A stretch of DNA of 64,000 nt from Polyangia bacterium (lineage in GTDB: Bacteria; Myxococcota_A; Polyangia; JAAYKL01): contig JBNLED010000113.1 of assembly GCA_050304755.1 (NCBI GenBank), forward strand, positions 4,376 to 68,375, given 5' to 3'. This document shows, piece by piece, positions 1,609-20,119 of the stretch; within the stretch, counting starts at the first letter, position 1, and each line of letters begins with the position of its first letter. The notes under the pieces were generated by a model, which ran no database searches, was not told the origin of the DNA, and saw only the letters and a list, made by a program, of their open reading frames with translations. The position numbers and the translations under genes were made by a program.

Positions 1609-4600
1609 CTACTGCGGGCAGGCCCCTACGACGATGTCCAGGGCCTCGGGAGGCAGCGGGACTGATGCCTCGAGCACGAAGACGGCTCCGTCTTCCGATA
1701 CGCTGGTGGTCAGACTGTTCGTACCGTGGGCTGTACAGCTTGTGGGATCGCACCAGTTGTCGAGCAGGAGGATTTCAATGTCCATGGCGGGGTCGACATG
1801 ACTCACGGAGATGGTCGCGGTGCCGTTGGCGGAGGGCTCCAAGACCACCACCGCCTCTGGTCCGTCGAACGTCCCGGGACAGGTCGCGTTGTAGGTGTCG
1901 TATTCCCGGTGGCTGAAGAGGTCGATGTCTTCTATCGGGGTGGTGCCGATGACGCATGGGATTTCGTAGGGATCTTCGTAGATTGGGATCCCGCAATCGT
2001 AATCGTTGTAGTAAACCTCCTGGCACTCGTGGATGGTGCAGATGCCGAGGTCGTCGTTGCAGGGTTGGTCATCGTCCGGGATGCAGACACCTTGGTAGCA
2101 GGTGGGCGCGGTGCCGAAGCAGGCGAACCCTTCGTTGCAGGGGGCGCCATCGGGGATCCCTTCATGAACGCCGCACGCCGCCTCGTCCCCGTTCGGCGTG
2201 CAGGGATCCGTGGTACAGGGGTCGCCGTCGTCGCACGGGGGAGACTCACCGGCGACGCAGACACCGTCCATGCACTGGTTCTCTCCATTGCACGGGTCGC
2301 CGTCATCGCAATCCCAGCCATCGACCATGACATCGACAGTACACGAGTCTGTGGTCTCGTTGCATGTCGAGACGGTGCACGGGTTGCCCGTGTCGTCGGT
2401 ACACGGGGAGACGCCGGTGCCGGGATCGACGCAGAGGCTGTTTTGGCACACCCTGGAAATGTCGCCGATGCAGAACTCCGGATCTGTACAGGCCTCTCCG
2501 TCATTGATCGCCGTGTCCACGCACGTGTCGTTCTCCTCGTCGCAGACGGTCTCGGCGCAGTCGAAACAGGTGACCTCCGTACAGGAAGCCGCCGGTGTAT
2601 CCGCACAGGGAGCGCTGGTCGCGGCGCAGCCTCCGGTGTTGTCGCACCGCTCCGGCCCGTTGCAGAACCGGCCGTCGCTGCAGCTCTCCCCCTCGTTGCT
2701 CGGGACGAAGTAGCAGTGGAAATCGACGCCGCACCGGTCCCGAGTGCACGGGTTCCCGTCCTCGCAGTGCGAGGGGCTGCTGCAGCACGCCCCGTCTCCC
2801 TGCGAGCAGCAGATGCCGTTGAGCGTGTTGCAGTTGCCGCCGGCGCAGTCCGTGTCCTCCTCGCAGGTGCCTCGACCGTCTGCGATATCGGCCTCACAGA
2901 GGTCGCCGACGCAATGGAACCCTTCGCCGCACAGCGCATCATCCTCCACGCTGGAGGGGCTGCAGTCATTCTCACAGTGGAACGTTGCGCTGCACGCGAA
3001 GCCGTCACAGTCGTCGACGCCGCTGCAGCACGCTCCGGCGTCACAACAGGTGCCGCTCGACAGGTCGCAGTAACCCGAAAGGCAATCGGTGTTCTCGTCA
3101 CAGGGCGCTCCACCGTTCGGCAGATCCGCGAAGCATGTGCCGCTGTCGCAATGAAAATCGCCGAGCCCTTCGCAGCGCGTATCGTCGTCCCCGGAGTCGC
3201 CGGTGCACGAGATAGCGCATGACCAGGACGCGGTATCGCACAGGTATCCGTCGCAGTCGTCATCGTCGTGACAGCACAAGCCCCCGGAACAGCAGATGCC
3301 GGTCGAGGGGGTGCAGTAGCCGGACTCGCACTCCCGGCCCTCGTCGCAGGGTCCCTGCCCATCGCTGAGCTTGTCCGCGCAGGTCCCGCCGGTGCAGGTG
3401 TCCCCTTCGTTGCACTGCGAATCATCGCTGCAGGTCGTGAAGCACACCTCACTGACCGTCCCCGCCGCGCACGCGTACTCTCCGGTGGGGGCGAACGCAT
3501 CGCAGCGGTCGACCACGGCGCAGCCCCCCTGACCGTCGCACAGCGACTCCCCGGCGCAGAGGTCTCCGTCCAGGGTGTCCGCGGCGCCGCAGGTGCCGAT
3601 GTCGTGATAGACGCACGAGAAGTTGCCGCACGACCGCTGGACGCAGAGCGAGTCGTCGCAGTCCGCCGGGGTGGTGCAGCACTCCCCGGCCGTGCAGCAG
3701 ATACCGCCCTCGCAGTGGTTCGAGTCGCATTCGCCGTTTCCGGCGCACGCCGCTCCGTTCGGCAGCCGGCCCATGGAGACGCACGCCCCGCCCTCACAGA
3801 AATAGCCGTCATTGCAGTCCGTGAGGTTGGCGCAGTCAGGGTTGCACCGCTGCGATACTTCATTGAGACTGCAAGCAAAGCCGCCGTCTGACGCGTAGGC
3901 CCCGCTGCAGGGCGAGACGGACGCACAGTTGCCGAAACCGTCGCAGCGATCGTCCCCGGTGCATCTCTCTCCGAGGTCGTTGTCCACGAAGCCGCAATCG
4001 GTCACGGCGCTATAGTCGCACCGGCTATTTTCGTCGCACCGCCTGGCGTTGCACAGCGTGTCATCGCAGTCCGAGTCCGCTGCGCAGCACTCCCCGGCCG
4101 AGCAACAATAACCGTCGCCGCAGTGGCCCGAGATGCATTCCGCGTCGGCGCTGCAGGCGGCGCCGTTCTCGAGCGTGCCCGGGACGCACTCCTCCGCCTC
4201 GCAGCGGTAGTCGTCGGCGCACTGCGTGGCGTTTCCGCAGGATGTGTAGCACGTTTCCCGGACCTCGTCCTCCGCGCAGACGAACGCCCCGGTCCCGGCG
4301 TAGGGCCCGGCGCATCGGTTGGTGCTGAGGCACTCTCCAAGCCCATTGCACAAGGCCTCTCCCCCGCACCCGTCCGGGTCCTCGGCGCCGCACCAGTAGC
4401 TGCTCGGATTGTACCGGCATTCGTTGTCCGTGCAGGTGTGCTCATTGCAGACGCTGTCGTCGCAATCCGCGGCGGACCGGCAGCACTCTCCCTCGCCGCA
4501 GCAGATCCCGTCGCCGCAGTGACCGGAGGCGCACTCCCCGTTTTCGCTGCACGCCTCTCCGTTCAGCCCCGCTGCCATGCGACAGGTGGAAGAGACACAG

Positions 4601-5343
4601 GTCGCCCCCTCTGCGCAGTTGGTGGCGCCGTTTTGGATGGTACAGTTCGTGTGACAGCCCGCCTCCACCGCGCCCTCTTCGCAGGTGTAGACATCGCTCG
4701 GTGCATAGGGCCCGCAATCCGGAACGGTGACCTCCACGCAGCCGCCGAACCCGTCGCACCGCTGGGCGCCCACGCAGGTGTCGCCCCCCTCCGTGTCCTG
4801 GCTTCCACACCCGAACACCGCCTCGCTGTACATGCACTGCTTGTTGCCGGAGCAGAAATACTGGACGCAGCGGGTGTCATCGCAGTCGTCCGCGTCGCCG
4901 CAGCACTCACCTTCGTCACAGCAGAACCCGTCGCCGCAGTGATTCGAGAAGCACTCGCAGTTATGGTCACAGGGGCTTCCCTGGAGCAGCGTGGGTGTGC
5001 AGACGGTGTCATCGGTGTCTCTATCGGCGGTGTCTGTCGTCTCGGTGTCCAGCGTTTCAGTACCCTGGTCGTCGCCACCGTCCGCGGTGCCGGAGTCCGT
5101 GTCGCTTTTCGGATCGCTCCCCGGGGGAGCCCCGGTGTTCGTCGCTGTATCGCTGATATCGCCCCCGCTGTCGCTGCCCGTATCAACCGTATCATCGGCT
5201 ACGCACTTCTTGTGGCGGCAGATCTCATTATTTTTGCAGTCGGAGTCGATCTTGCATTCAGCACACCCCCAACCGTACAGCGCGACAATACCAGACAGGA
5301 ACAATGGGAGGAGGCCCTTCTCCATCAGGTCGGCATTTTTCAT
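1609..5343 (-). CDS. Giant cysteine-rich secreted lipoprotein-like protein (1244 aa) with about 9 tandem LxNGxxCxxxxxCxSGHCxDGxCCxxGxCCxxxxDCDD modules, DxCNGPERC/CDDGDPCTTDPC-type repeats and a C-terminal PPC-like beta-sandwich; cassette copy 1, small member
   Basis: The ORF is long and uninterrupted. Its N-terminus, MEKGLLPLFLSGIVALYGWGCAEC, resembles a lipoprotein signal, and an alternative start lies at 5325. The cysteine spacing is strongly periodic. It is paralogous to 10398-13667 at both the N- and C-termini (the C-terminus shares ...PAMDIEILLLDNWCDPTSCTAHGTN...). The product is acidic and Asp-rich. Confidence 0.8.
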   Translation of the reverse strand: MKNADLMEKGLLPLFLSGIVALYGWGCAECKIDSDCKNNEICRHKKCVADDTVDTGSDSGGDISDTATNTGAPPGSDPKSDTDSGTADGGDDQGTETLDTETTDTADRDTDDTVCTPTLLQGSPCDHNCECFSNHCGDGFCCDEGECCGDADDCDDTRCVQYFCSGNKQCMYSEAVFGCGSQDTEGGDTCVGAQRCDGFGGCVEVTVPDCGPYAPSDVYTCEEGAVEAGCHTNCTIQNGATNCAEGATCVSSTCRMAAGLNGEACSENGECASGHCGDGICCGEGECCRSAADCDDSVCNEHTCTDNECRYNPSSYWCGAEDPDGCGGEALCNGLGECLSTNRCAGPYAGTGAFVCAEDEVRETCYTSCGNATQCADDYRCEAEECVPGTLENGAACSADAECISGHCGDGYCCSAGECCAADSDCDDTLCNARRCDENSRCDYSAVTDCGFVDNDLGERCTGDDRCDGFGNCASVSPCSGAYASDGGFACSLNEVSQRCNPDCANLTDCNDGYFCEGGACVSMGRLPNGAACAGNGECDSNHCEGGICCTAGECCTTPADCDDSLCVQRSCGNFSCVYHDIGTCGAADTLDGDLCAGESLCDGQGGCAVVDRCDAFAPTGEYACAAGTVSEVCFTTCSDDSQCNEGDTCTGGTCADKLSDGQGPCDEGRECESGYCTPSTGICCSGGLCCHDDDDCDGYLCDTASWSCAISCTGDSGDDDTRCEGLGDFHCDSGTCFADLPNGGAPCDENTDCLSGYCDLSSGTCCDAGACCSGVDDCDGFACSATFHCENDCSPSSVEDDALCGEGFHCVGDLCEADIADGRGTCEEDTDCAGGNCNTLNGICCSQGDGACCSSPSHCEDGNPCTRDRCGVDFHCYFVPSNEGESCSDGRFCNGPERCDNTGGCAATSAPCADTPAASCTEVTCFDCAETVCDEENDTCVDTAINDGEACTDPEFCIGDISRVCQNSLCVDPGTGVSPCTDDTGNPCTVSTCNETTDSCTVDVMVDGWDCDDGDPCNGENQCMDGVCVAGESPPCDDGDPCTTDPCTPNGDEAACGVHEGIPDGAPCNEGFACFGTAPTCYQGVCIPDDDQPCNDDLGICTIHECQEVYYNDYDCGIPIYEDPYEIPCVIGTTPIEDIDLFSHREYDTYNATCPGTFDGPEAVVVLEPSANGTATISVSHVDPAMDIEILLLDNWCDPTSCTAHGTNSLTTSVSEDGAVFVLEASVPLPPEALDIVVGACPQ

Positions 5344-5451
5344 CTCTCGAATCCTTTCAAGGCCATCTCAAAGGACAAAAGTAATGATGACATGGCTCGG
5401 CGGCATATCAATTGAACCCCTGCAGGGCGAGACGCCGAAGCCCCCGGCGTC

Positions 5452-8400
5452 TCATTGATAGGACATTCCTATCGAGAAGTTCCCCTTGTCGTTGTTGTCA
5501 TACCCATCCACCAGCAGGTAGTAGGGCTGACTCAAAGCACTCAAGTCGACCGTGAATTCGGGCATCCCATACCAGCCGCAGCCGTTGTCATTCTGTGCCA
5601 CCATCTGCCCGGCGCAGTTGAACAGGGCCATCTGTCCGTTGAAGGAGCCGGAGCCCCCGTCCCGGCACCCGCTGAACCGCACCCTCGAATCGGTCGAAAC
5701 GTCGATCTGCCACAACTCGTCCTTCCCGCCCCACCCGCCGGAGGTGTCGAAGCGGTTCGACTCGTCGTTGGTGCCGCCGTTGATGTCACTGTCCGGGAGA
5801 AAGCCCGAGCCGTCAGCGTTCACCGTGTAGGCCCCCTCCACCCCATTGCTGTACCAGGCGGTCACGTCGCGGCAGGCGACCGGGCAGGCCCCCTCCCGAA
5901 CGTTGATCCGGTAGTTGCAGTCGTCTCCTGCCGACGGGGTGCAAAGCCGGTTGATCTTCGCGTACTGGGATATCTCGACGAGATAGAGGGTGTTCGGATC
6001 CGCGGTGAACTCCCACTGGACGTTGTCGCCGTGGCTGTCGTGTCGGCAGCCCACGGTGCTGTAGGACTCGTCACAGATTGTGTCGGCGCCGTTCCTGCGT
6101 TTTTTCAACGCCATCACGAGGTCGGCGCCGTCCGCGATGGTCTCATCACTGGAGATACAGTAGGTGGCGCTCCCCTCGAAGGCGTTCCGGTGGATCTTGA
6201 AGTACTCCTGGTTCGGCCACAGCTCCGTGGCGGCGGCATTCTGGTGGCAGCTGCTCCGGCCGGTCCAGCCGCAATCACAACCGTATCCGCCGCAGTCGCC
6301 GCCGCAGGCGTGGAAGCTGTTCACCGTGCTCTCCAGGGTTCCCTGGAAGGTCTCGCCGGTCTCGCCGACGTTGGTGACGTCGTACACCCGGCCGTCGTCG
6401 TTGACCCTGTCGCACGGACCGGCCCACCAGCGCCGTTTCTCGACGGTGACGTAGAAGTTGCCCTGGCTCCCGTCCACGCCGTCGATGAACACGAACACCG
6501 TTTTGGTCGAACCGTCTGTTTCGCCCTTCGGGGAGATGACGGCGCTCGCGATGTAGTTGTAGTCGTCATAGCCGGTATCGTTCGGGGTCGCGGAATCGCA
6601 ATTGAAGGGATCGTGAGGGTAGGACCACATGGCGTCGCAGTCACCCTTGAAGGTCCAGGGATCGTAGCCCGGGCCGCCGGCGCCGGCGCAGATGTCGCAG
6701 CTCGAGCCGTCGTGGTTGTACCCGCGCTTGCACCACTTGTAGCAGTTGTCGTCGGTGCAGGGATCGCAGCACTCCTGTCCGTAGCGCGTGTTCCCGTCAT
6801 CGCGGCACTCGTCCTCTACCACCGGCGGCATGGGATCGTCCTGATAGGGATAGAAGCAGCGCCGGGACTCCACCGCCACGAAGGTCTCGGTGTGGGCGTC
6901 CAAGGTCGGGTTGTTGCCCTCGGGACAGTCGCTCGGAGAGGAGATGTCGGTTTTGATGTACACGCCGATGTCGTAGTCGGCCTCGACCTTCAAGATATAT
7001 GAGTAGAGCTCGAACTCATCGGCCGCGTTGGTCTGGTACTGGAACGCGTAGACGAGATCCCGCCCTTCATAGCCGATCTGATTGCCCGTGAGGTACTCAT
7101 CGCAGTCGCCCCCCTCCGCGTAGTAGTTGTTCTCCGCGCACAAGGTGCTGCCGGTGACCTGCAGGAAATCACCGTCTATTGGGATGGCCCCCAAGTAGGC
7201 CACATGGCCGGTGTCGACGGCGCCCGAGGTAAACAGGTCGGAGCAGAGGTTGTTTCCCGCGGCGTGCCTCGTCGGCGTGCAGGCCCCCGAATCGGTGCAC
7301 TCCCCGTGGAAGCAGTTCGGGGGGAAGTCGGCGACGCTGTAGTCATCGCACGCCGCCCCGGCGCCCAGCGGATCACAAATGCAGCTGCCGTCCGAGCACC
7401 GAACCGTGCCGCAGTCGTTGCAGGCGACCTGGCCCTCGCAGTCGGTATCGGCCACGCAGTCCGGGCAGGGGCTGATGGCCGCGTTGACGCAACCCGTCGT
7501 CGGATTGCAGGTGTCGGTTGTGCAGCGGTTGCCGTCGTCGCAGGCGGCGACCTCCCCCACGCAATCACCGGCGACGCAGGCGTCGTTCAGCGTGCAGGCG
7601 TTGTCGTCATCGCAGCCGAGCGTGTTGTCTACGTGGGTGCACCCGGATGACGGATCGCATGCGTCATCGGTGCACGGATTGTCATCGCTGCAGTCCCGGG
7701 AGATACCCGCACACTCGCCGTCCGCGCAGACATCGTCCGTCGTGCATTTGTCTCCGTCGTCGCAGTCAACGGTGTTGTCCGTGAACACGCAGCCGGCGGC
7801 CGCATCGCAGCTGTCCGTCGTGCAGGGATTTTCGTCATCGCACACAATGCTGGATCCGGTGCAGGCACCGGCGGCGCAGACGTCGTCCTCGGTGCAGGCG
7901 TTCCCGTCATCGCAGAGGCCGGATATGGGGGTGTTGACGCACCCCTCGGCGGCGACGCAGGTGTCGTCGGTGCACGGATTGTCATCGTCACAGTTGACGG
8001 TGTAGCGGTAGGGATCCGGTCCGTTGCCGTCGTCGTAGTCGATGCCCACCTCCTCCGGAGGCCAGTACGTTTCATCCACGACGACCTCGTCGATCTCGAC
8101 GTTCCCGGCGTTGGTCCCGAGGAAGAACTCGGGGCCGAGCCCGCCGCCGTGAAACGTGGCCTCGAAGGATATCAGTTCTACGTTGTCCACATAGACGTGG
8201 ACCATCTCTCCGTCGTAGGACATCACCATCCGGACCCACTCTCCGGGCTCGATGGTGGACGGGACCGACGGTTTCGACCAACCGACGAACTTGTTTCCGT
8301 ACCCCGCCATGATGTTGTTGTCCCGATCGATGCCGAGGTAGAATCGCTTGCCGGCGCCGCTGAAGGCGCCGATGGTCTGGTGCTCTCCCTCGACGCTGTC

Positions 8401-10338
8401 GAACTTGACCCAGAACGCCAGCGTGCTCGTGTCGGCGTTGACGTGGAACCCGGTCCCGGCCTTGCCGACGTTGCTTCCGTTTCCCGGACCGAAGCGGATC
8501 CCCTGGCCGACCTTGCCGGGCACCAGGGACACCTCGTTCTCGGTCGTCGCGGGGTACAGCCCGGCGTGGTCTTTGACGTCTCCGTCGTGGCCGTCCCAGA
8601 AGTCCTCCTCAAAACGCCAGTGAACGATGATGCCGCCACACTCGCCCCCGGAGCATCGGTCGTTCACCGTGCAGAGGTTGAAGTCATCACAGGCCATGGT
8701 GTTCTCGCTGTGCTCGCATCCGAGCTCCGGCGAGCAGAAATCATCGGTGCAGTAGTTACCGTCGTCGCAGTCCGCGACGGTCCCCTGACAGAGGCCGCCG
8801 CTGCACGCGTCCCCCTCGGTGCAGGTGTTCTCGTCATCGCAAGGCGCGGTGATGTTCGAAAAGCGGCAACCCGAGGCAGGGACACAGGTGTCCTCCGTGC
8901 AGTCGTTGTCGTCGTCGCACACCACGTCGGCCGTGCCCGCGCAGACCCCAGCGGTGCAGACGTCGCCCTCCGTGCACTCGTTGCCGTCGTCGCAGGGATC
9001 CGTATTGTCGACGTTGACGCAGCCCAGCACGACGTCGCAGGTATCGTCCGTACAAGGGTTTCCGTCGTCGCAGTCCGGCGCCTCACCGCCGAAGCAGGTC
9101 CCGTCCGAGCAGGTGTCCCCCTCGGTGCAGGCGTTAAAATCATCACAATGAGCGGTGTTGTAAGCGTAGACGCAGCCGGCCGAGCTGTCGCAGCTGTCAT
9201 CCGTACAGTGGTTGCCGTCCGAGCAGTTTCTGGCGGCGCCGCCGCAGACGCCCTCGCCGCAGACGTCGTTGACGGTGCACGCGTCCCCGTCGTTGCACGG
9301 ATCGGTGTTGAAGGTGTAGACGCAGCCGGCGTCGTCGTCGCAGCTGTCGTCCGTGCACGGATTCGCGTCATCGCACTCGGCCACCGACCCGCGGCATTCG
9401 CCGCCGGTGCAGACGTCGTTCTCCGTGCACTCGTTCCCGTCATCGCAGGGGCCGGTGATCGCAGCGTTTCGGCACCCGTCTATCGGATCACACGAGTCCG
9501 CGGTGCAGGGATTGTCGTCGTCGCAGATGGTATCGCTCAGCTCGTGCCGACACTCGCCGGACGCGGTATCGCACTCCTCGACGGTGCAGGCGTCCCCGTC
9601 GTCCGGACAGTCATCGTCTTCGGTGCAGAAGCTGATGAGGCAATCCGCATTGGTCGAGCAGAAGCCGATCTCTCCGAAATCCTCTCCCCTGAGCTGGGGG
9701 TGTACGGGGTAGTTTCCGTCGCAGCACACATAGTCATTGGAAGTGCACACCTCCTCCGGGGAGTGATCGGGATCGCTGCTCTCGCAGCCGCCGAAACAGG
9801 AGCACGTCCGGTATCCGTTGCACCATTTCGGACCGCAGAGCCCGTTGGGGGTGCACAGGCCGTCCGCGCAGTCGTCGTCGGAATCGCACTTGCAAACCCC
9901 GAGGAGCAGGTTGCATTGGCCAAAGGGACAATCGTCGTCCTCGTCGCAAGTGACGCCGTCGTCTTCTGCGTCCTGCATCCAACACTCGGTAATCTGGCCC
10001 GCTTCGCTGCAGCACTCCGTGGCGAGGAGCGCCGGCTCGCGGAATGGGCTCAGTTGAGCGTCGATGTCGTCAAACAGATGATCAACGCTACCGCGCCCTT
10101 CGAGGTATCCTTCCGGTAAGGACGGCGCCGCGTCTTTCTCCCCCTCTCCACCTGCTGGAGGGGGGGCCGGGGGGTGAGGTTCTTCCTGCGGCTCGACCGA
10201 CATCACTTCGTCGGAGCATCCGACAAATACCGAGGTGGTTCCAATAAGCAATAGGCTGCACACCCTTGCGTAGCGTCGGACCCACCCGGGCCGTGAGCGG
10301 GGGGGACCGAGGGTTGCGGTTATGTCTGGAATCACCAT
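5452..10338 (-). CDS. Giant cysteine-rich lipoprotein (about 1628 aa) with CDDGNxCTxDxC-type repeat arrays flanking a LamG/ConA-like domain, followed by an approximately 650-aa C-terminal module with three PPC-like domains; cassette copy 1, large member
   Basis: The start was chosen at ATG 10338 (MVIPDITATLGPPRSRPGWVRRYARVCSLLLIGTTSVFVGCSD, a lipobox). The upstream ORF extension overlaps the 3' end of the neighbouring gene. The LamG-like segment is WVKFDSVEGEHQTIGAFSGAGKRFYLGIDRDN...VYVDNVELISFEATFHGG. The C-terminal PPC-like ending is ...QPYYLLVDGYDNNDKGNFSIGMSYQ. It is paralogous to 13700-19153. Confidence 0.8.
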   Translation of the reverse strand: MVIPDITATLGPPRSRPGWVRRYARVCSLLLIGTTSVFVGCSDEVMSVEPQEEPHPPAPPPAGGEGEKDAAPSLPEGYLEGRGSVDHLFDDIDAQLSPFREPALLATECCSEAGQITECWMQDAEDDGVTCDEDDDCPFGQCNLLLGVCKCDSDDDCADGLCTPNGLCGPKWCNGYRTCSCFGGCESSDPDHSPEEVCTSNDYVCCDGNYPVHPQLRGEDFGEIGFCSTNADCLISFCTEDDDCPDDGDACTVEECDTASGECRHELSDTICDDDNPCTADSCDPIDGCRNAAITGPCDDGNECTENDVCTGGECRGSVAECDDANPCTDDSCDDDAGCVYTFNTDPCNDGDACTVNDVCGEGVCGGAARNCSDGNHCTDDSCDSSAGCVYAYNTAHCDDFNACTEGDTCSDGTCFGGEAPDCDDGNPCTDDTCDVVLGCVNVDNTDPCDDGNECTEGDVCTAGVCAGTADVVCDDDNDCTEDTCVPASGCRFSNITAPCDDENTCTEGDACSGGLCQGTVADCDDGNYCTDDFCSPELGCEHSENTMACDDFNLCTVNDRCSGGECGGIIVHWRFEEDFWDGHDGDVKDHAGLYPATTENEVSLVPGKVGQGIRFGPGNGSNVGKAGTGFHVNADTSTLAFWVKFDSVEGEHQTIGAFSGAGKRFYLGIDRDNNIMAGYGNKFVGWSKPSVPSTIEPGEWVRMVMSYDGEMVHVYVDNVELISFEATFHGGGLGPEFFLGTNAGNVEIDEVVVDETYWPPEEVGIDYDDGNGPDPYRYTVNCDDDNPCTDDTCVAAEGCVNTPISGLCDDGNACTEDDVCAAGACTGSSIVCDDENPCTTDSCDAAAGCVFTDNTVDCDDGDKCTTDDVCADGECAGISRDCSDDNPCTDDACDPSSGCTHVDNTLGCDDDNACTLNDACVAGDCVGEVAACDDGNRCTTDTCNPTTGCVNAAISPCPDCVADTDCEGQVACNDCGTVRCSDGSCICDPLGAGAACDDYSVADFPPNCFHGECTDSGACTPTRHAAGNNLCSDLFTSGAVDTGHVAYLGAIPIDGDFLQVTGSTLCAENNYYAEGGDCDEYLTGNQIGYEGRDLVYAFQYQTNAADEFELYSYILKVEADYDIGVYIKTDISSPSDCPEGNNPTLDAHTETFVAVESRRCFYPYQDDPMPPVVEDECRDDGNTRYGQECCDPCTDDNCYKWCKRGYNHDGSSCDICAGAGGPGYDPWTFKGDCDAMWSYPHDPFNCDSATPNDTGYDDYNYIASAVISPKGETDGSTKTVFVFIDGVDGSQGNFYVTVEKRRWWAGPCDRVNDDGRVYDVTNVGETGETFQGTLESTVNSFHACGGDCGGYGCDCGWTGRSSCHQNAAATELWPNQEYFKIHRNAFEGSATYCISSDETIADGADLVMALKKRRNGADTICDESYSTVGCRHDSHGDNVQWEFTADPNTLYLVEISQYAKINRLCTPSAGDDCNYRINVREGACPVACRDVTAWYSNGVEGAYTVNADGSGFLPDSDINGGTNDESNRFDTSGGWGGKDELWQIDVSTDSRVRFSGCRDGGSGSFNGQMALFNCAGQMVAQNDNGCGWYGMPEFTVDLSALSQPYYLLVDGYDNNDKGNFSIGMSYQ

Positions 10339-10397
10339 ATTCTCCTCCATCACTATCTTTCTTCCAAAAGTCATCCACGCGAAACAGCGCTCAGGGG

Positions 10398-13300
10398 TTA
10401 CGGACATGTCACCGTCACCTCCAGGCTCTCCGGCGTCAGCGCTACAGGGACCTCGAGGACCAAGAAGTGGGTCCCCGGCTGCACCGAAACGGTCAAGGTG
10501 TTCGTTCCGTGATCCGTGCACGTGGACGCGTCGCACCAGTCCGTCAGGTGCAGCACCTCGATGTCCATCGCGGGGGTTACTTCCGAGACTGCGACGGTCA
10601 GGGAACCCGCGGCGTCGACCGCCACGCTGATCACCCCCTCGACGCCGTCCAGAGAAACACCACAGCTCCCCTCGTAGTCGTAGTATTCGCTGCTCTCGAA
10701 ATGGTCCTGGGTCATCGCGGTCTTCCCGCAGGTCGCCGCCACCGGCGCCATCGGCTGCTGCTCGCACTGGATGCCGGACACCATCTCGTAACAAACGTCC
10801 ATCGTACAGAGGCTCCCATCGACGCAGGGGCGGACCTCGGCGGGGACGCATACGCCGAGCTCACAAGTGGCGGCCTCTCCCATACACGGCGCGCCGTCAC
10901 ACGGGTCGCCGTTTTGCTTTGTCGTGTGAGCCCCGCACACCGCGGTGCCGTTGTCGTCGGTGCAGGCGTCGTCGGTGCAGGGGTCTCCGTCCTCACAGGG
11001 GAGCTCATCCGCGTCCTGACACTCGCCGTCCAGACACCGGTTGTCGCCGTTGCAGGGATCGTCATCACAGGGGGTTCCGTCCACCGCCGCGAGCTCGTTG
11101 CATCGGTCGTTGTCTTCGTCGCACGCCAACAAGGTGCAGGGATCGCCCGTCGCTCCAGCACAGGGGGGCGTCCCCGTGCCGGGATCGGCGCACACCCCGC
11201 TCGCGGTGCAGACCTTCGCGACGTCCCCGAGGCAGAACAGGGCGCCCGTACACGCCTCCCCCTGGTTTCTGGGGGTGTAGACGCACTCATCGGCACCCTC
11301 ATCGCAGCTCTCCAGCATGCAGAAGGTGGAGTTGGTGCACGGCGCCGTCCCTTCGGTGCAGACCCCGCCGAAGCAGCGCTCCGGACCGTTGCAGAAGTCG
11401 CCGTCGCTGCAACTGACACCCTCGGGGGCGTCGCTGGTCTGGCATTGGAATCCCGAGGTACACAGATCGACGGAGCACTCGCCACCGAGGTCGCAGTCCG
11501 AAGAATCGGCGCAGCAGTCGCCGCCCTCACAACAGATGCCGCTGACCGAATCGCAGTAACCCGATGCGCAGTCGCCGGCGACGAGACACTCGCTCCCGTT
11601 CGGTTTCCGGGGAAGACAGACCGTCTGGTCGCAGGAATAACCGGCGGCGCACAATTCGTTGTCCCCGGCGCAATCGTCCAGACAACTGAACGCCTCCCCG
11701 CAGAGGAAGCCGCCGCACTCGCTGTCGCTGAGACAGCAATCGCCGGCATCGCAGCAGACGCCGGTCGACACCTCGCAGTGCTCCGAGAGGCAGTCGGTGT
11801 CCTCGAAGCAGAACCGTTCGCCGTTCAGGAGATCGGCGGTGCAGAGGCCCGCGTCGCAGTGGTAATCCCCGAAGTCCGCGCAGTCATCGGCGTCGGTGCA
11901 GGCGGTCAGGCAGGCATCCGTCGCCGGGTCGCAGATGAGGAGAAAGTCGCCGCACTGGCTGTTGTCGTCACAGCAGTAACCGTCGTCGCAGCAGACGCCG
12001 GTCGCCTCGTTGCAGTTTCCGGAGGCGCAGTCCGTGTTGGCATCGCACTGGCTCTCCCCTGAAAGCAAATCCGGAACGCACGCGTCCTGGACACAATGGT
12101 AACTCTCCACGCAGTCGCCGTCGTCGGCGCAGGTGGCCTTGCAGTCGTAGGTGACGGACCCCGGCGCGCACTCGAAGGTATCGCCGATATAGCCGCCCTC
12201 GCACGCCGACAGCGCGACGCAGCCCCCGTTGCCGTCGCAGCGCTGATCGCCCGTGCACGTCTCCCCCTCCGTGAGGTCGAAGGAGGCGCACGCCAGAGGA
12301 TAGTAGCGGCACTGCTTCGAGCCCAGGCAGGAGGCGGTGTCGCAGAGGCGGTCCGCGGTGCAGTCCTCGGCCGAGGCGCAGCACTCTCCGGAGGCGCAGC
12401 AGTACCCGTTATCGCAATGCCCGGAGGCGCATTCGAGGTCGGTCTCACAGGCGTCTCCGTTCCGGAGCGTTCCGGAGACGCAGCCGCCGTCGACACAGGC
12501 GAATCCCGCGGCGCACAGCGCGTCCGAGTCCTCCCCGCCCTCCGCGCAGGACGGCGCGCAAACATATCCGTCGTCTACGAGGCACGCCATCCCGCCGCAG
12601 TCGTCGTCCGAGACGCAACACGCATCTCCCTCACAGCAGATCCCCTTTAGAAGATCGCAGTGATCGGAGCGGCAGTCGGAATCCTCGTCGCACCACACCT
12701 CGCCGTTCGCCAGGTCGTCGTAACACCAACCGTTGTCACAGTGATTGTCTGCAGCGGCGGAGCAACGCGCGTCGCTATCCGCCCCGTCCATGTCGGCGCA
12801 GCTGGTCAGGCAGGAGAAGCTCGTTGCGTCGCAGGCGTAGCGACCGCAATCCCCGTCCCGGATGCAGCAGCTGCCCGATTCGCAGCAGATCGCGCTCGAA
12901 GGATCGCAGTGTCCCGATTCGCAGTCGAGGTTGGCGTCGCAGCCGACCTCTCCGTTGGCCATCCGAACAGCGCACGCGGTGTCGACGCAGGCATAGCCCT
13001 CGTTGCAGTGGGCGTTGCTCGAGCAGGATTCGCGGCAGCTCTCTACGATATTGCCATCGATGCATTCGTAGCTGCCGCTGCCCCCGTACGCTACGGAAAC
13101 GCAGGGTTCAGCGGCGACGCACCCGCCCTCGCCGTCGCACCGGCTGTCGCCGCTGCACGGGGTGTCGGAGGCCTGGTCCAGAGCGCCGCAGGGCAGCAGG
13201 TTGTACTGACAGTGGAAGTTGCCGTCACAGAACGACGCCTCGCAGGTCCGCTCCGGGCAGTCCGAGTTGTCGCCCGGTGTTCCGCAACAATAGCCCTCAT

Positions 13301-13667
13301 CGCAGCAGATCCCGTTCTGGCAGTGGCCGGAGTCGCAGTCCTCGTCGTCGGTGCAGGGGGATCCGTCCGCCCCCGCTTCGATGGTGTCGCCGGCGTCCGG
13401 CGGCGGCGCGTCCGACGCCGAGTCCTCACCGGGCTCTGTCTCCCTGTCGCTCTCTGCGGGCTCCGAGTCCCCGTCGGTGGACTCCGAGGCAGCGGAGCCG
13501 GCATCCTCCTCGGCGGCTCGGCACGATCCCTTTGCGCAGATTTCATCATCGCTGCAGTCCGAATCGGTCTTGCACTCATCGCACCCCAGTAGCCCCACAT
13601 ATGAGAGGCTGAAGGCGATGACCAACGGGCGCCACCATACTCTCGTGGTGCAATCAATACGCTTCAT
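10398..13667 (-). CDS. Giant cysteine-rich lipoprotein (1089 aa) with CxSGHCDxxxxxCCxxGxCC modules; cassette copy 2, small member and paralogue of 1609-5343
   Basis: The N-terminus MKRIDCTTRVWWRPLVIAFSLSYVGLLGCDECKTDSDC carries an LLGC lipobox. An AAGGA ribosome-binding site lies about 8 nt upstream of ATG 13667. The C-terminal beta-sandwich (...TPAMDIEVLHLTDWCDASTCTDHGTN...VTVTCP) is shared with the 1244-aa protein. Confidence 0.8.
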   Translation of the reverse strand: MKRIDCTTRVWWRPLVIAFSLSYVGLLGCDECKTDSDCSDDEICAKGSCRAAEEDAGSAASESTDGDSEPAESDRETEPGEDSASDAPPPDAGDTIEAGADGSPCTDDEDCDSGHCQNGICCDEGYCCGTPGDNSDCPERTCEASFCDGNFHCQYNLLPCGALDQASDTPCSGDSRCDGEGGCVAAEPCVSVAYGGSGSYECIDGNIVESCRESCSSNAHCNEGYACVDTACAVRMANGEVGCDANLDCESGHCDPSSAICCESGSCCIRDGDCGRYACDATSFSCLTSCADMDGADSDARCSAAADNHCDNGWCYDDLANGEVWCDEDSDCRSDHCDLLKGICCEGDACCVSDDDCGGMACLVDDGYVCAPSCAEGGEDSDALCAAGFACVDGGCVSGTLRNGDACETDLECASGHCDNGYCCASGECCASAEDCTADRLCDTASCLGSKQCRYYPLACASFDLTEGETCTGDQRCDGNGGCVALSACEGGYIGDTFECAPGSVTYDCKATCADDGDCVESYHCVQDACVPDLLSGESQCDANTDCASGNCNEATGVCCDDGYCCDDNSQCGDFLLICDPATDACLTACTDADDCADFGDYHCDAGLCTADLLNGERFCFEDTDCLSEHCEVSTGVCCDAGDCCLSDSECGGFLCGEAFSCLDDCAGDNELCAAGYSCDQTVCLPRKPNGSECLVAGDCASGYCDSVSGICCEGGDCCADSSDCDLGGECSVDLCTSGFQCQTSDAPEGVSCSDGDFCNGPERCFGGVCTEGTAPCTNSTFCMLESCDEGADECVYTPRNQGEACTGALFCLGDVAKVCTASGVCADPGTGTPPCAGATGDPCTLLACDEDNDRCNELAAVDGTPCDDDPCNGDNRCLDGECQDADELPCEDGDPCTDDACTDDNGTAVCGAHTTKQNGDPCDGAPCMGEAATCELGVCVPAEVRPCVDGSLCTMDVCYEMVSGIQCEQQPMAPVAATCGKTAMTQDHFESSEYYDYEGSCGVSLDGVEGVISVAVDAAGSLTVAVSEVTPAMDIEVLHLTDWCDASTCTDHGTNTLTVSVQPGTHFLVLEVPVALTPESLEVTVTCP

Positions 13668-13699: not shown

Positions 13700-16600
13700 C
13701 TATAGATTCGGTATCGAATGGTTGACCCCCGTGTACCGCAACTTCACGGTGCGGGATCCGCTCCCTTGGAGCTCGATGACCGTGGCGCAGCTGTCGTCTA
13801 TTCGGTAGTCGGTGGTCAACGCCATCTGGTTGCCGGAGAAGGACTCGTCGTCACTCCTGCCGGAGCAGCTGTTGGACCAATGGAACGGGAGGGGATACTC
13901 GTTCCCGCCGTTTTTGGTTTTCAACCACATAAATTTATTGTTCCAATGCGCGGGATAGTGATCCCGGACCATGACGCAGGCGTCGTTGCTGACCGTAACC
14001 CAGTTGTTTTCCCCCCCCAGGTCGGTGGCGGTGGCCTCGCTGCAGCCGGCGGTGGCCGCGCAGACGCCGCCGGTGCAATCGTCGCTCTCGCAGTCGCTGT
14101 CCACGATGCAGGTCTGGCCCTCCGCGCAGGGGGCGCAGACAGCCCCCCCGCAGTCCACGTCGGTCTCGTCGCCGTTTTGGGTGTAGCTATAGCAGGTGTT
14201 CAGATAGGTCATCGAGATGCCGTAGCTGCCGTCGTCGCGCCAACCGTAGCCGTCCACCAGGAGGTAGTAGGGCTGGCGGGAGATGTACAGATCCGCGGCG
14301 AAGTGGGGCATGCCCCAGCGGCCGCAGCCATCATCGTTCCACATGACCTGGTCGCCCTGGCAATCGAAGAGCGCCATCTGACCGTCGAACCAGCCGTAGC
14401 CCCCGCCCCAGCAGCCGCTGAAGAGCACGTAGGAATTCTCCAGTACATCGATTCTCCAAAGCTCGTCATTGCCGCCCCAGCCCCCGTGGATGTCGTAGTC
14501 GTTAGAGCTATCGCTGGTGTCGCCGTCGACGATGCTGTCCGGGCTGAAGCCGTCTGCCACCCCTTCAACGGTGTAGACACCGTTGACCGCGGCCCCGTAC
14601 CAACTCTGGGGATCGACGCAGTCCGACGGGCAGGGTCCCTCGGTGACGGTGAGCGCGTAGTGGCAGTCGTCGCCCAGCGCGGAGTTGCAGGGCCTGTTGG
14701 TATAGCCCCACTGGGACAGGGAGAAGAGATAGAGCTCCCCGGCGCCGGCGGTGAACTCCCACTCGACGTTGCCGCCCGCGTCGTCGTGGCGGCAGTCGAT
14801 GGGCGTGTAGGCGTCACTGCAGATGGTCAGGGCCTGCGAATCGGTGCGCCGGGCGCCGACGATGGTGAGGTCCGCGGCGTTATCGACTGATTCGTCGGTT
14901 TGGATGCAGTAGGTCTGATCGCCGTCGGCCAGGTTCCGGTGAATCTTGAAGTACTCCCGGTTGGGCCAGAACTCGTTCGCGGCATATCCCCCCTGGTGGC
15001 AGCCGGTGGGGGAGGGCCAAGTGGCGCAGTCGTGCCCGCCGCAGGCGCCGCCGGTGGCGGGCTCGCTGTTCACCACGCCGTCCAGGGTCCCGAGGAAGGT
15101 CTGTCCCGCCGCGCCCACGTCGGTGATGTCGTACACCCGGGTGTCATCGTTGGCCCGGGCGCAGGGGCTCGCCTGGAGGGGCTGTCGTTCCACCGTCAGG
15201 TAGAAGTTTCCGGAGGCGCCGCCGATGCCGTCGATGAAGACGAATATGTGCCGCGGCGAACCGTCCGTGTCTCCCTCGGGTGAGACCGTCGCGACGGCCA
15301 TATATTCGTAGTCGTCGTACTCGGCATCCATCGGCGTCTCGGACTCGCAGTCAAAGGGATCATCCGGGTAGGTCCACAGCGTGTCGCAGTCGCCGGTGTG
15401 GGTCCAGGGATCGTAGCCGGCGCCGCCGGCACCGTCACACATGTCGCAGGAGGTGCCGTCGTTTTCGTACCCGCGCTTGCACCATTTGAAGCCGCAGGAG
15501 GCGCCTTCGATACACGGATCGCAGCACTCCTGATCTCGAAGCGCGTTTCCGTCGAGGGCACACTGCTCCTCGATGGCCGGCGGTGCGACGGTGTTTTTGT
15601 AGGGATAGGCGCACATCTTGGACGAGACCCCGGCGGAGGCCGACGCGTCATCGGCCGGCCGATTCCCCTCCGGGCAATCATTGGCGGTGGAGATGCCCGT
15701 CTCGACATACACACCGACCTCGAAGTTCGCCTGTACTTTAATGACATAGGAATAGAGTTGATAATCGTTCGCGGTATTGGTGGGGTATTCAAAGACATAG
15801 ACGACATCATTGCCGCTGGTCCCCAGATCATTGCCGCTGGTCTTCTCGGTGCATGTATCCGCGATAGAGTTGTAGTTGTTGTTGGCGCAGGTCGTGCTCC
15901 CGGCAATACCCCCGACGGGGACGGTGCCGAGATAGCCTACATGAGAGGTGTTGAGAGACGCGGGGGCGGCGGCGTCGAACAGATCGGAGCAGAGGTTGTT
16001 GTTTGCGGTGTGCGAGACCGGATCACAGGTTCCCGCGCCGTCGCATTCGCCGTCATAGCAGTTGGTCGGGTACAGCAGGTCGTTGTAGTCGATGCAGGCG
16101 CTGTCCGCTGCTTCGTGGTTGCACACACACTCGTTGTCCACGCAGGCCAGCTGACTGCATCCGTCCGGCGGCAGGGGGGTGCCGATACAACCGAGCCCCG
16201 AGTCCGCGCAGTCCGAGACGTCCAGGCAGCAGTCCGCTACCGGCGTATCGTCGCATTCGTAGCTGTTGTCGCCGGTGGATCGGCAGGCGGACGTGTGGCA
16301 GTCGTCCGGCGGGCTGCAGACGGCGTCGTCGCCCTTGACGCACGCGCCGTCGTCGCAGTGGTCGTCCTGCGTGCAGCCGTCCCCGTCAGCGCTGCACGAG
16401 GTGGAGCTGTCGGCCTTCACGGTATCACAGCTGCTGTCGTATGGATTCGATGCGAGGCAGACGCCGGACACGCAGGGCAGGTTGTTCAGACCGGAGCAGT
16501 CCCTTTCGTCACCCAACATGCACTCAGCGCCCACGGCTGGGTCTCCCGAGTCGACGCATTCATCAAGGGTGCAGCCGTCGCCGTCCAGATCGCAGCTTCC

Positions 16601-19153
16601 CGGGGAGGTCGACTTGACGACGGCTTCGCAATGGTAGCTATTGACGCTGTCGTCCACGCACACCGCGGTGTTGCAGTCCGTGTCGACACCGAGCGCGCTC
16701 TCGCAGGCAGCGGCGGTGACGGTGACGCCCTTGACGCACGCGCCGCTGTCGCAGTGGTCATCCCGGGTACAACCGTCGTCGTCGAAATTGCAGGACGCCG
16801 TGACCGGCTCGTCGGTGTTGTTGCATTGATATGTATTCCAGGTGAGCGACTCGCAACTGTCCGCGGTGCATTCATTCCCGTCGGAGCAGGAAACGGTGGA
16901 CACGGGCGTGCAGGTGAGACGCCCGTCGGCGGCGGGCCCCTGGCAGGTCTCTACCGTGCAGCCGCTGTCGTCCAGGTTGCACGGCGCGTCAAGGAGACGG
17001 TCATTGTCATACACGCAATCCCCTGTCCCGGGATCGCAGGTGACGCGGTTGCATTGATCCTCCATGCCGGAGCAGTCCACCGGCGCGTCTGCGACGCAGA
17101 CCCCGGATTGACACGTGTCATTCGGCGTGCAGTCGCTGTTATCCCTGTTGCAGGGAGCCCCTTCGTGGGGTATCGGGTCCCGCTCGCAGTCGCCGGTGGT
17201 CGGGTTGCAGACGCCGGTGTTGCAGGCGTCGTCCATCCCCGAGCAGTCCTTTATCTCCGTGTCCGCGATACATCGGCCGTTTCCATCGCAGGCGTCGTCG
17301 ACCGTGCAGGCGTTGCCGTCCGCGTCGCAGGACGTGCCCGCCACGAGGTAATCGGGCTCGCACTCCCCGGTGGACGGGTTGCAGACGCCGTTTGCGCACG
17401 CGGTGGTTTCACCGGAGCAATCGAGCGGCGGGCCTTTGACGCAGATACCCGAAACGTTGCAGGTATCGACCGTGCAGGGATCGACATCGCAGCCCGCGCC
17501 GGATCGTATCGCGTTCTCACACTCCCCGCTGATGCACGAGTCGGCGGTACAGTCATTCCCGTCGTCGCAGTTCTTTTCCGCGCCGGATCGGCACACGCCG
17601 AAGCCGCCGCCGTCTTGGCAGGTGTCACCCACGGTGCAGGGATCTCCGTCATCGCAGGCCTCCCCGATGAGGTCCGCGTAGGAGAGCGTGCAGTTGTCTT
17701 CGCCGTTCCCATCGATACACGAATACCGGTTGCACTGCAGGTCGTAGCCCTCGGGGTTGTGGGCGGCGCAATCCGTGGAGACAGACGCCTCGAAGCCAGC
17801 GAGGCAGACAATATCGCTGCAGTGGTCCGGGTCGCTGTAGCCGAAGTCAGTCGCGTCCCCGTTCCGCGGCGGGTTCTCGCAGGTCCAGACGATGTGATTC
17901 GGGTCTTCGTCCGTGCAGGCGTCCGGAAAGGTGCACCAGTTGGCGTCGTCACAATCCTGTACTTCTCCGGAAACGCACGCCCCGAATGCGTCGCATCTGT
18001 CGACCGTGCAGGCGTTGTCATCCCCGTTGCACGGGACACCGATGTGATCGGAGGGATCGTGGTGGCAGGCGCCGGCTGCGCAATAGCCCGACTCGCAGGG
18101 GTTCCCCGACGCGTCATCGCAGTGAAGCGTGTCGGACAGGTCCGATCTGGCCACGCAGCGCCCTGAGCCGTCGCATTTTTGAAAGTAGCAGCTCGTCGTA
18201 TCCATATCGTCGCTGCGGGGACCATTGCCGTACCAAGCCGGGTCGACGCCCTGCGGGTTGTCCTCGCAGTCGCCGTTCTCGTTGCTGAAATCCACGGCGC
18301 AGCTGCCGCGGACACACCACTCGACGGCGCAATCGGCGCTGAGCTCACCGGCGAGGTTGTTGCAACCGGGGCTCTCCGGGACATCTCCATCGATGGCGGG
18401 GAACTGACACAAACCGTTCTCGCATCGATTGGCGGTACAGGGATTGCCGTCGTCACAATCGGCTTCGCTGTCGCAATCCTCGTCCCTCATAGCACAGTTT
18501 TCGTTGGCACAGAATCCGAACCCGGCGCCGTCGCTTCGCCGTGGATAGGCCCCCTCACAGCAGTAGCCGGCGTAGCCATTCTGAACATCTTTGCACATCG
18601 ACTCCGGTGAGTCATATCCCGCGATCCCCCCCGGCTTGCAGCCGCCCCAACAGGCGCAGACGAGGAAGCCGTTGCAGTAGGATGGCCCGCACACCCCGAG
18701 GTCGGTGTTGCAGACGCCCTGTCTGGTGTTGCCGTCGTTGCAGTCGGAGTTGCTGCGGCATTCACACAACCCCTGCCCTGAAGGACCGGTCAAATCGTAG
18801 TTGCAGGACTGGTTGTTGGGGCAGCTCTTGTCAGGGGAGCACGTGACGCCGTCGCTATCGGCATCCTCCCACCAGCATCCGGATATCTCTCCGGGTTCGG
18901 TGCAGCACTCTTCATTCGCGAATGGGGTGTGGGAGAGTTGGAATCGCGACAGAGATAATCGTCGATCCTCACGCTGGAGCATCGCCTCACCGGGAACTTC
19001 TGAAATAGTCACCACGGACGCTCCGTCCGGGTCATAAGACGAAGCCGCATCGTCTCGAGGCTCACAGGCGAAGAGCAGGATTATCGATGAGAACACGCAA
19101 AGGGTGATATTTTTAATTGAATGAATCATGACTCCCCATTCCTTGCTTTTCAA
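13700..19153 (-). CDS. Giant cysteine-rich lipoprotein (1817 aa) with CDDGNxCTxDxC-type repeats, three PPC-like domains, and C-terminal Cys-knot and CBM-like beta-sandwich domains; cassette copy 2, large member and paralogue of 5452-10338
   Basis: The N-terminus MKSKEWGVMIHSIKNITLCVFSSIILLFACEP carries an LFAC lipobox, and an alternative start lies at 19129. The N-terminal ECCTEPGEISGCWWEDADSDGVTC block matches ECCSEAGQITECWMQDAEDDGVTC in protein A. The C-terminal approximately 650 aa align with protein A (CCDPC...KWCKRGY..DG(T/S)SCD(M/I)C(D/A)GAGG(A/P)GYDPWT...YYLLVDGYG). An extra approximately 170-aa tail is TCYSYTQNG...CAPCAEGQTC...RYTGVNHSIPNL. Confidence 0.8.
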   Translation of the reverse strand: MKSKEWGVMIHSIKNITLCVFSSIILLFACEPRDDAASSYDPDGASVVTISEVPGEAMLQREDRRLSLSRFQLSHTPFANEECCTEPGEISGCWWEDADSDGVTCSPDKSCPNNQSCNYDLTGPSGQGLCECRSNSDCNDGNTRQGVCNTDLGVCGPSYCNGFLVCACWGGCKPGGIAGYDSPESMCKDVQNGYAGYCCEGAYPRRSDGAGFGFCANENCAMRDEDCDSEADCDDGNPCTANRCENGLCQFPAIDGDVPESPGCNNLAGELSADCAVEWCVRGSCAVDFSNENGDCEDNPQGVDPAWYGNGPRSDDMDTTSCYFQKCDGSGRCVARSDLSDTLHCDDASGNPCESGYCAAGACHHDPSDHIGVPCNGDDNACTVDRCDAFGACVSGEVQDCDDANWCTFPDACTDEDPNHIVWTCENPPRNGDATDFGYSDPDHCSDIVCLAGFEASVSTDCAAHNPEGYDLQCNRYSCIDGNGEDNCTLSYADLIGEACDDGDPCTVGDTCQDGGGFGVCRSGAEKNCDDGNDCTADSCISGECENAIRSGAGCDVDPCTVDTCNVSGICVKGPPLDCSGETTACANGVCNPSTGECEPDYLVAGTSCDADGNACTVDDACDGNGRCIADTEIKDCSGMDDACNTGVCNPTTGDCERDPIPHEGAPCNRDNSDCTPNDTCQSGVCVADAPVDCSGMEDQCNRVTCDPGTGDCVYDNDRLLDAPCNLDDSGCTVETCQGPAADGRLTCTPVSTVSCSDGNECTADSCESLTWNTYQCNNTDEPVTASCNFDDDGCTRDDHCDSGACVKGVTVTAAACESALGVDTDCNTAVCVDDSVNSYHCEAVVKSTSPGSCDLDGDGCTLDECVDSGDPAVGAECMLGDERDCSGLNNLPCVSGVCLASNPYDSSCDTVKADSSTSCSADGDGCTQDDHCDDGACVKGDDAVCSPPDDCHTSACRSTGDNSYECDDTPVADCCLDVSDCADSGLGCIGTPLPPDGCSQLACVDNECVCNHEAADSACIDYNDLLYPTNCYDGECDGAGTCDPVSHTANNNLCSDLFDAAAPASLNTSHVGYLGTVPVGGIAGSTTCANNNYNSIADTCTEKTSGNDLGTSGNDVVYVFEYPTNTANDYQLYSYVIKVQANFEVGVYVETGISTANDCPEGNRPADDASASAGVSSKMCAYPYKNTVAPPAIEEQCALDGNALRDQECCDPCIEGASCGFKWCKRGYENDGTSCDMCDGAGGAGYDPWTHTGDCDTLWTYPDDPFDCESETPMDAEYDDYEYMAVATVSPEGDTDGSPRHIFVFIDGIGGASGNFYLTVERQPLQASPCARANDDTRVYDITDVGAAGQTFLGTLDGVVNSEPATGGACGGHDCATWPSPTGCHQGGYAANEFWPNREYFKIHRNLADGDQTYCIQTDESVDNAADLTIVGARRTDSQALTICSDAYTPIDCRHDDAGGNVEWEFTAGAGELYLFSLSQWGYTNRPCNSALGDDCHYALTVTEGPCPSDCVDPQSWYGAAVNGVYTVEGVADGFSPDSIVDGDTSDSSNDYDIHGGWGGNDELWRIDVLENSYVLFSGCWGGGYGWFDGQMALFDCQGDQVMWNDDGCGRWGMPHFAADLYISRQPYYLLVDGYGWRDDGSYGISMTYLNTCYSYTQNGDETDVDCGGAVCAPCAEGQTCIVDSDCESDDCTGGVCAATAGCSEATATDLGGENNWVTVSNDACVMVRDHYPAHWNNKFMWLKTKNGGNEYPLPFHWSNSCSGRSDDESFSGNQMALTTDYRIDDSCATVIELQGSGSRTVKLRYTGVNHSIPNL

Positions 19154-19275
19154 CTGTGCAATTGGTGCAAAAGATATACCAGGCGATTCGGCTTTTTAAT
19201 GTATTGAAATCATATAAAAATGGGTGTTCGGTTTGATTGGACCGACATTTAATGGCAGAAAAAAATTCCATCTGA

Positions 19276-19287: not shown

Positions 19288-19353
19288 CCCAAAATGGTCC
19301 AAGTGTAAAAGTGGGATGTGCTTCAGATCCCCAAGGGTATGTAGCAGCCCTCA

Positions 19354-20064: not shown

Positions 20065-20119
20065 GGGTAGTGTTCCTTTACAATCAGTGTGACTGTAAAA
20101 TTTCACCAGCACAAGATTA

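Follow-up and report, generated by a model that had tools for sequence, protein, structure and literature searches.

A stretch of 64,000 nucleotides (nt) from a Polyangia bacterium (assembly GCA_050304755.1, contig JBNLED010000113.1, positions 4,376 to 68,375; hereafter the window) encodes two large paralogous proteins, A and B. They share a C-terminal head of some 600 amino acids (aa), predicted to fold as three β-sandwiches, of which the third is, by profile comparison, a member of the pre-peptidase C-terminal (PPC) superfamily. The most probable reading, to which we give a probability of about 0.55, is that each protein is a lipid-anchored stalk carrying a compact, non-catalytic three-sandwich binding head and an exchangeable tip, with a co-encoded partner. 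The structural part of this reading is well supported; lipid anchoring, surface exposure, the binding function, its Ca2+ dependence and interaction with the partner are what we infer. The four genes follow one another on the minus strand in the succession B, P3, A, P4, with gaps of 32 to 108 nt between the open reading frames (ORFs):

13700..19153, minus strand: gene B, 1817 aa, probable lipoprotein, lipobox LLFAC
10398..13667, minus strand: partner gene P3, 1089 aa, Cys-rich probable lipoprotein (LLGC/DECK), located between B and A
5452..10338, minus strand: gene A, 1628 aa, probable lipoprotein, lipobox VFVGC (from the ORF list, translation and a lipobox scan)
1609..5343, minus strand: partner gene P4, 1244 aa, paralog of P3, downstream of A

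BLASTP aligned the C-terminal ~900 aa of A and B collinearly (46% identity, E = 0). Global alignment of the two heads, which start at the motif NNLCSDLF, gave 53.7% identity over 592 aligned positions (55% in the first domain, D1, 51% in D2 and 55% in D3). Cysteine makes up about 5% of the head (31 residues in A and 29 in B). The likeness is not an effect of composition, since identity was 54.3% once every column with C or D had been removed and the local alignment score of 1796 was far above that of shuffled sequences (54 ± 8, maximum 78, n = 100). An earlier reading made from the sequence alone (the sequence-only reading) had described a collinear C-terminal stretch of ~650 aa in both proteins. 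This is accounted for by the ~600-aa head and a ~50-aa Cys-rich connector, and pairwise alignment disposes of the concern raised there that the similarity might be limited to low-complexity Cys/Asp composition. The shared motifs that it quoted were all found, with one slip (EFWPN is ELWPNQEYFKIHRN in A). As DNA, the two head copies are 68% identical. As A is closer to copies in other genomes (58 to 65% aa identity) than to B (54%), A and B are old paralogs and not the result of a recent duplication. The segments concerned are:

nt 7255..7404, minus strand: Cys-rich connector before the head of A, aa 979-1028, ~50 aa
nt 5455-7254, minus strand: head of A (from NNLCSDLF), aa 1029-1628, running to the end of A
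nt 6430..7254, minus strand: D1 of A, aa 1029-1303, sandwich split by a ~130-aa Cys-rich insert
nt 5890..6429, minus strand: D2 of A, aa 1304-1483, sandwich with a ~40-aa low-confidence loop (AlphaFold2)
nt 5455..5889, minus strand: D3 of A, aa 1484-1628, PPC-superfamily sandwich by profile (QPYYLLVDGY...GNFSIGMSY)
nt 14204-16000, minus strand: head of B, aa 1052-1650
nt 15179..16000, minus strand: D1 of B, aa 1052-1325 (hmmsearch domain table)
nt 14636..15178, minus strand: D2 of B, aa 1326-1506 (hmmsearch domain table)
nt 14204..14635, minus strand: D3 of B, aa 1507-1650, PPC-type (hmmsearch domain table)

An alignment of 18 sequences, trimmed (A2), was the source of the profile, the model input and the residue numbering used here. 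The AlphaFold2 model of the head built on A2 had a predicted local distance difference test score (pLDDT) of 76.4 and a predicted template modelling score (pTM) of 0.69. It was all-β, with three groups of about 8 to 10 strands forming jelly-roll sandwiches whose cores had pLDDT values of 80 to 93; the parts of low confidence were the Cys-rich insert in D1 and a loop in D2 (model residues 363-394). The connector, with conserved Cys at columns 3, 8, 10, 19, 31, 36 and 42 of A2, was modelled as short β hairpins. The pTM of 0.69 suggests that, in the model, the three domains pack as one unit and not as beads on a string. In a Foldseek search of PDB the top match was the tandem of collagen-binding domains s3a-s3b of ColG (5iku; E = 9.6e-8, probability 1.0), and the alignment spans more than one head domain, as it covers 269 columns against a 240-residue target. 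The other top matches were CUB pairs, tandems of the carbohydrate-binding modules (CBMs) CBM22/CBM51, HA70, the SIDT1 ectodomain and Vip3 C-terminal domains, all of which are non-catalytic tandem sandwiches. Phage tail, CBM, PA14 and galactose-binding proteins were matched in a viral structure library. A jelly-roll β-sandwich fold like that of the ColG/ColH collagen-binding domains, which are PPC-type, is thus predicted for the head.

The heads of A and B had no Pfam match even at E ≤ 10, PPC (PF04151, gathering score 25.9 bits) included, and the single head sequence had none among PDB sequences. A CEACAM match of the head profile in PDB sequences (E = 0.032) was judged to be due to chance. 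Sub-threshold matches to Pfam PPC were present in 3 of the 18 family members (best E = 0.0015); P0004 gave E = 0.047 and P0001 E = 0.52. The regions matched by the hidden Markov model (HMM) of D3 overlap significant Pfam PPC stretches in P0042, P0048 and P0096, and hhalign of D3 with those repeats gave a probability of 99.5% (E = 1.5e-22). This profile evidence places D3 in the PPC superfamily, even though A and B stay below the Pfam threshold.

D1 seems to be a PPC-like sandwich that the ~130-aa insert (CPEGN...ECCDPC...KWCKRGY...WSYPHDPFNC) splits, since both of its halves match PPC in the right order, but the sequence link is marginal. The N-terminal half of the D1 HMM matches P0095 at 823-900 (27.8 bits), overlapping Pfam PPC at 853-923, and the last strands of D1 (FVFIDG..GNFYVTVE) match the C-terminal strands of PPC with an hhalign probability of 49% over only 21 columns. 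In the model there are strands on both sides of the insert, with a core pLDDT of 80 to 93. Within the family, conservation is strongest in D2 (PCDRVNDDxRVYDVT, VNS, CH, FWPNxExFK, YCxxTDE, ADL; invariant residues R333, D336, D337, R339, N362, H387, W396, E421 and D428). It showed no sequence relation to PPC (hhalign probability 5.9%), and its HMM matched only members of the D1-D2 family. D2 is probably a family-specific sandwich whose PPC type is suggested by the modelled fold and not by sequence. D1, D2 and D3 are not internal repeats that can be detected by sequence (hhalign probability ≤ 2%). Of the proposal of three PPC-like sandwiches, therefore, the three sandwiches, their ColG-like fold and the PPC identity of D3 stand, whereas a sequence link is missing for D2 and marginal for D1.

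The head and ColG s3a-s3b, a PPC-superfamily tandem, are alike in being tandem jelly-roll sandwiches at the C-terminus of a secreted protein. However, A and B have no peptidase upstream, and their head differs from ColG and PPC domains in the ~130-aa Cys-rich insert of D1, the ~40-aa loop of D2 and many disulfide cysteines. In scans of Pfam and NCBIfam, none of A, B, P3 and P4 matched a peptidase or any other enzyme family. The PPC-typical position C-terminal to a secreted peptidase is thus not found in A and B, as the sequence-only reading had noticed. It had taken this to be unusual, but a missing protease is not odd, because most of the > 1000 proteins matched by D3 are protease-free tandem PPC arrays. 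A place after a peptidase is typical of PPC and not obligatory, and the PPC proteins scanned here showed no peptidase family. These arrays, from Bacteroidota and other phyla, share with A and B the D3-type domain (E down to 1e-35) and the lack of a protease, but they have no D1, D2, N-terminal Cys-rich domain, Dicty_CTDC stalk or partner gene. Many carry a Por_Secre_tail of the type IX secretion system (T9SS) at the C-terminus, whereas A and B have an N-terminal lipobox. The head is like tandem PPC/collagen-binding domains, yet is no plain member of that group, as only D3 passes a homology test.

Relatives of the head are few. In a collection of 5.8 billion proteins a single-sequence search found 5 and a profile search 17, all of them singletons from metagenomes or metagenome-assembled genomes (MAGs). 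The A2 profile, run exhaustively with HMMER against 1.84 billion representatives, returned 1163 proteins at E ≤ 1e-3, but the D1-D2 region was present in only ~40 of these (E < 1e-30); the rest matched only at profile positions ~525-644 (D3), usually 3 to 17 times per protein. When one genome was scanned for each of 185,579 species, 9 loci turned up, and every MAG concerned bore the label Myxococcota, Myxococcales, Polyangia or Deltaproteobacteria. The best matches in the searched collections had 62% (genome) and 60% (protein) identity, and head identity between genomes was 50 to 65%. No description of the D1-D2 family was found in literature searches.

What follows the core differs from member to member. 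There is nothing after D3 in A and others, and nothing after D2 in P0005 (or, as called, in P0015 and P0016); a second D3-type domain is found in P0003, P0004, P0009, P0014 and P0019, and a B-type tail is a further variant. P0002 (aa 763-892) and P0010 (aa 1390-1464) have Cys-rich CC..GC..CVC domains, single or duplicated and in place of or after D3, that have no Pfam match (CC....GC....I..CVC..D.FCC...WD..C...V..FGC..CP). The longest tip is an extension of ~1350 aa after D2 in the L012 member (2700 aa, 5172-13271), with DUF4215 (Myxococcus-type Cys-rich) repeats and several unassigned β-rich stretches. CBM60 is present in P0031 and P0034 (significant) and P0033 (sub-threshold), and a C-type lectin in the more distant relative P0097. 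These four proteins share the D1-D2 core and the Dicty_CTDC stalk, but after D2 they carry known carbohydrate-binding modules where A has D3 and B has D3 and its tail. Such real sugar-binding modules at the tip position are the best indirect argument that the head and tips recognize ligands. In addition, P0031, P0032 and P0035 end in a recurrent unannotated domain of ~95 aa (...WNWNPGDLESITVNG...CNGGWY...HLEVKP), which in P0031 comes after the CBM60 domains.

B exceeds D3 by 167 aa (nt 13703-14203), whereas A stops right after D3. The tail of B has two parts:

14060..14203, minus strand: tail part 1, ~48-aa Cys-rich linker, QNGDETDVDCGG..C..C...DC..C (translation)
13703..14059, minus strand: tail part 2, ~119-aa β-rich tip domain, no family match

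The Cys-rich part and β-rich tail described for B by the sequence-only reading are therefore both present, the second being predicted as all-β. That the tail belongs to copy B alone is correct within the window but not beyond it. P0020, a B ortholog (1683 aa, same lipobox, 57% identity over the N-terminal 850 aa), has the same two-part tail, and P0038 and P0039 end in related domains; the linker motif recurs in the tail of P0020 and, in tandem, in P0022. The suggestion that the tail resembles a CBM gained no support here. The tail had no Pfam match at E ≤ 10, and so no CBM family model, no significant relative among PDB sequences and no homolog in a word-index search. A single-sequence AlphaFold2 model was all-β and of low confidence (pLDDT 47.8). 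Foldseek found no match to this model at E ≤ 0.001; the best was the ColG collagen-binding domain (1nqj_B, E = 0.012, non-significant) and the first CBM stood at rank 38.

Further candidates for the tail were discarded. A 25-residue word match (DLGGENNWV) in L014, from a pattern scan of metagenomes, is a chance match, as was judged to be a phycoerythrin alpha match of the four-tail profile in PDB sequences (E = 0.013). A PDB match to GH45 (double-psi β-barrel fold; E = 0.18) was non-significant and mostly through the Cys-rich linker. Comparison by hhalign with PPC, D1, D2 and D3 gave no signal for the tail, nor for the C-terminal domain of the partner. The tail of B is a small domain that recurs within the family. 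Carbohydrate binding by it is plausible by analogy only, since in relatives CBM60 or a C-type lectin takes its place.

N-terminal to the head, A consists of a Cys-rich domain, Dicty_CTDC repeats, Laminin_G_3 and further repeats, in that order, before D1-D2-D3. Dicty_CTDC (PF00526) is matched by multiple repeats in A (11 stretches, E = 3.1e-35, Pfam). No match to it was found in B at E ≤ 0.1, though the repeat region of B aligns to that of A by BLASTP. The architecture of B is that of A minus the laminin G-type domain (LamG) and plus the C-terminal tail. The LamG-type architecture is kept in the relatives from L001, L002 and L005 and in P0018, indicating that A-type and B-type proteins are two old subfamilies. 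The other features of this part are:

nt 8077-8445, minus strand: Laminin_G_3 (concanavalin-like) in A, aa 632-754, mid-stalk (Pfam, E = 1.8e-12)
nt ~9630-10060, minus strand: conserved N-terminal Cys-rich domain of A, aa ~95-235, without Pfam match
nt ~18450-18870, minus strand: conserved N-terminal Cys-rich domain of B, aa ~95-235, without Pfam match

The N-terminal Cys-rich domain (ECC..G.I..CW...DGVTC...CGP.[WY]CNG[YF]..C.C[WF]GGC...CC.G.YP) is found in every full-length family member, even the minimal P0005 (741 aa), and so travels with the D1-D2 core. No significant Pfam family was matched by B, P3 or P4, and no NCBIfam family by any of the four proteins. Each of the four opens with a signal peptide ending in a lipobox-like motif (LLFAC in B, LLGC in P3, VFVGC in A, GWGC in P4), and the lipobox scan also found lipoboxes in most full-length homologs. 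Gene B probably starts at the Met at nt 19129.

Wherever a related locus extended far enough, a homolog of P3/P4 (30 to 47% identity) lay beside the module protein. Flanking genes differ between loci, so the pair is a conserved unit, a two-gene cassette, of which the window has two copies (B-P3 and A-P4). P3 is 43% identical to the neighbour of P0008 in L001, where the partner (6873-10010) precedes the module protein with a 10-nt overlap; the module protein comes before the partner in L003 (partner at 14429-17764), L008, L011, L012 and L013. Tandem pairs were found in L005 (two) and L004 (three; partners at 2313-3749, 6093-7403 and 10407-11876). The signature of P3 and P4 is a lipobox directly followed by C[SDA]ECK and a C-terminal ...VTCP.

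According to the binding-head reading, A and B would be paralogous cell-envelope proteins, each held by an N-terminal lipid anchor. A long disulfide-rich repeat stalk, in A also with LamG, would carry the head away from the membrane. The head would bind a ligand non-catalytically, as domains of the collagen-binding, CUB or CBM types do, and possibly in a Ca2+-dependent manner, with D2 contributing most of the invariant polar residues (R, D, D, R, N, S, H, E, D). It may act together with the co-encoded partner lipoprotein, and the position after D2 or D3 would serve as an exchangeable tip. Against this, the lipobox is non-canonical in A (FVGC) and in P4 (GWGC). Moreover, no relatives of D2 or of the D1 insert could be detected beyond the family, so the invariant H/D/E/R residues might conceivably serve in catalysis or at a metal centre.

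Each rival reading is less supported than the binding head. One is that the head is a new jelly-roll enzyme (for example a polysaccharide lyase, glycoside hydrolase or metal-dependent peptidase) whose active site would consist of invariant residues in D2 and at the D1/D2 junction, with D3 and the tips targeting the substrate in the way of PPC and CBM domains of secreted enzymes. The strongest conservation is indeed a polar cluster at the D1-D2 boundary and in D2 (R333, D336, D337, R339, N362, H387, E421, D428), D2 matches no known family, and catalytic domains are the usual companions of PPC, CBM60 and lectin domains. Yet no enzyme family was matched in Pfam, NCBIfam or PDB sequences, and none of the top 50 structural matches was a jelly-roll enzyme matched through its catalytic domain, binding modules being found instead. 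PPC-type collagen-binding domains bind Ca2+ through clusters of Asp, Asn and Glu at their start (as in ColG s3b), so the NDD motif could be explained without catalysis, and an enzyme seems quite unlikely. Only slightly better placed, and still unlikely, is a structural role for A and B in a spore coat or a secreted extracellular matrix, comparable to that of the Cys-rich repeat proteins of Dictyostelium, the head serving for assembly or cross-linking only. The dominance of Dicty_CTDC repeats in A, the very high content of conserved cysteine (35 conserved Cys columns in the module alone) and the pairing and tandem amplification of the genes would suit such a role. The lipobox, on the other hand, predicts membrane attachment and not release, and the recognizable sugar-binding modules at the tips of relatives fit recognition better than pure scaffolding.

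Myxococcus xanthus TraA is described in PMC12248028 and PMC13184517 as a polymorphic receptor for outer-membrane exchange, with TraB. An analogous role for A, B and their partners, as a polymorphic cell-cell or predator-prey recognition system in which the variable tip sets specificity, is improbable, although several features recall it. Like TraA, A and B are surface proteins (by prediction) of Myxococcota that combine a Cys-rich stalk with a lectin-like β-sandwich recognition domain and have an adjacent partner gene; moreover, tips differ between relatives, tandem paralogous pairs occur inside one genome and the family is confined to Myxococcota (9 loci). TraA has an N-terminal PA14-like variable domain, a Cys-rich stalk and a C-terminal MYXO-CTERM anchor. 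The order is reversed in A and B, in which the anchor is N-terminal and the head C-terminal, and neither PA14 nor MYXO-CTERM was found in them (Pfam, NCBIfam), their C-termini having no hydrophobic tag. Furthermore, the head is conserved between genomes (50 to 65% identity) and not hypervariable, and in place of an OmpA-type TraB the partner is a large lipoprotein rich in Cys. TraA may be regarded as an architectural analogue only. It would be a long shot to see in the module and partner cassette a Myxococcota-specific surface recognition machine separate from TraAB, with D1-D2 as a new variant of a ligand- or metal-binding fold and the tip setting which prey, kin or polymer is recognized.

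What is new is a rare protein family without Pfam or NCBIfam coverage, so far found only in uncultured Myxococcota. Its members run from a Cys-rich N-terminal domain through a repeat stalk to the D1-D2 core, followed by a PPC domain or another tip, and they have an obligatory partner gene. D1 and D2 are two domain models worth adding to family databases, and the head is an example of PPC-type sandwiches heavily decorated by disulfide-rich inserts. The family is a candidate adhesin/lectin system in organisms known for surface-dependent predation and multicellular behaviour. The fold class is familiar and the finding alone opens no long-standing question.

The window has a G+C content of ~65%. 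Outside the cassettes it is chromosomal and myxobacterial in look, with polynucleotide phosphorylase at its start. A scan for promoters and terminators was uninformative. G+C dips to 0.58 at 18001-22000, just upstream of gene B (~0.65 elsewhere), where the ORFs have no Pfam match; foreign DNA or an intergenic or regulatory stretch are possible explanations. An ORF of 494 aa with a PA14 domain (26857-28341, minus strand; E = 4.1e-7) lies ~8 kb from the cassette, and several of its neighbours at 19.3 to 26.4 kb match no Pfam family. Giant regulators that join a kinase to a sigma-54 activator are typical of Myxococcota, and at 41941-47049 (minus strand) a protein of 1702 aa joins a Ser/Thr protein kinase to AAA_16/TPR, GAF and a sigma-54 activator with HTH_8.

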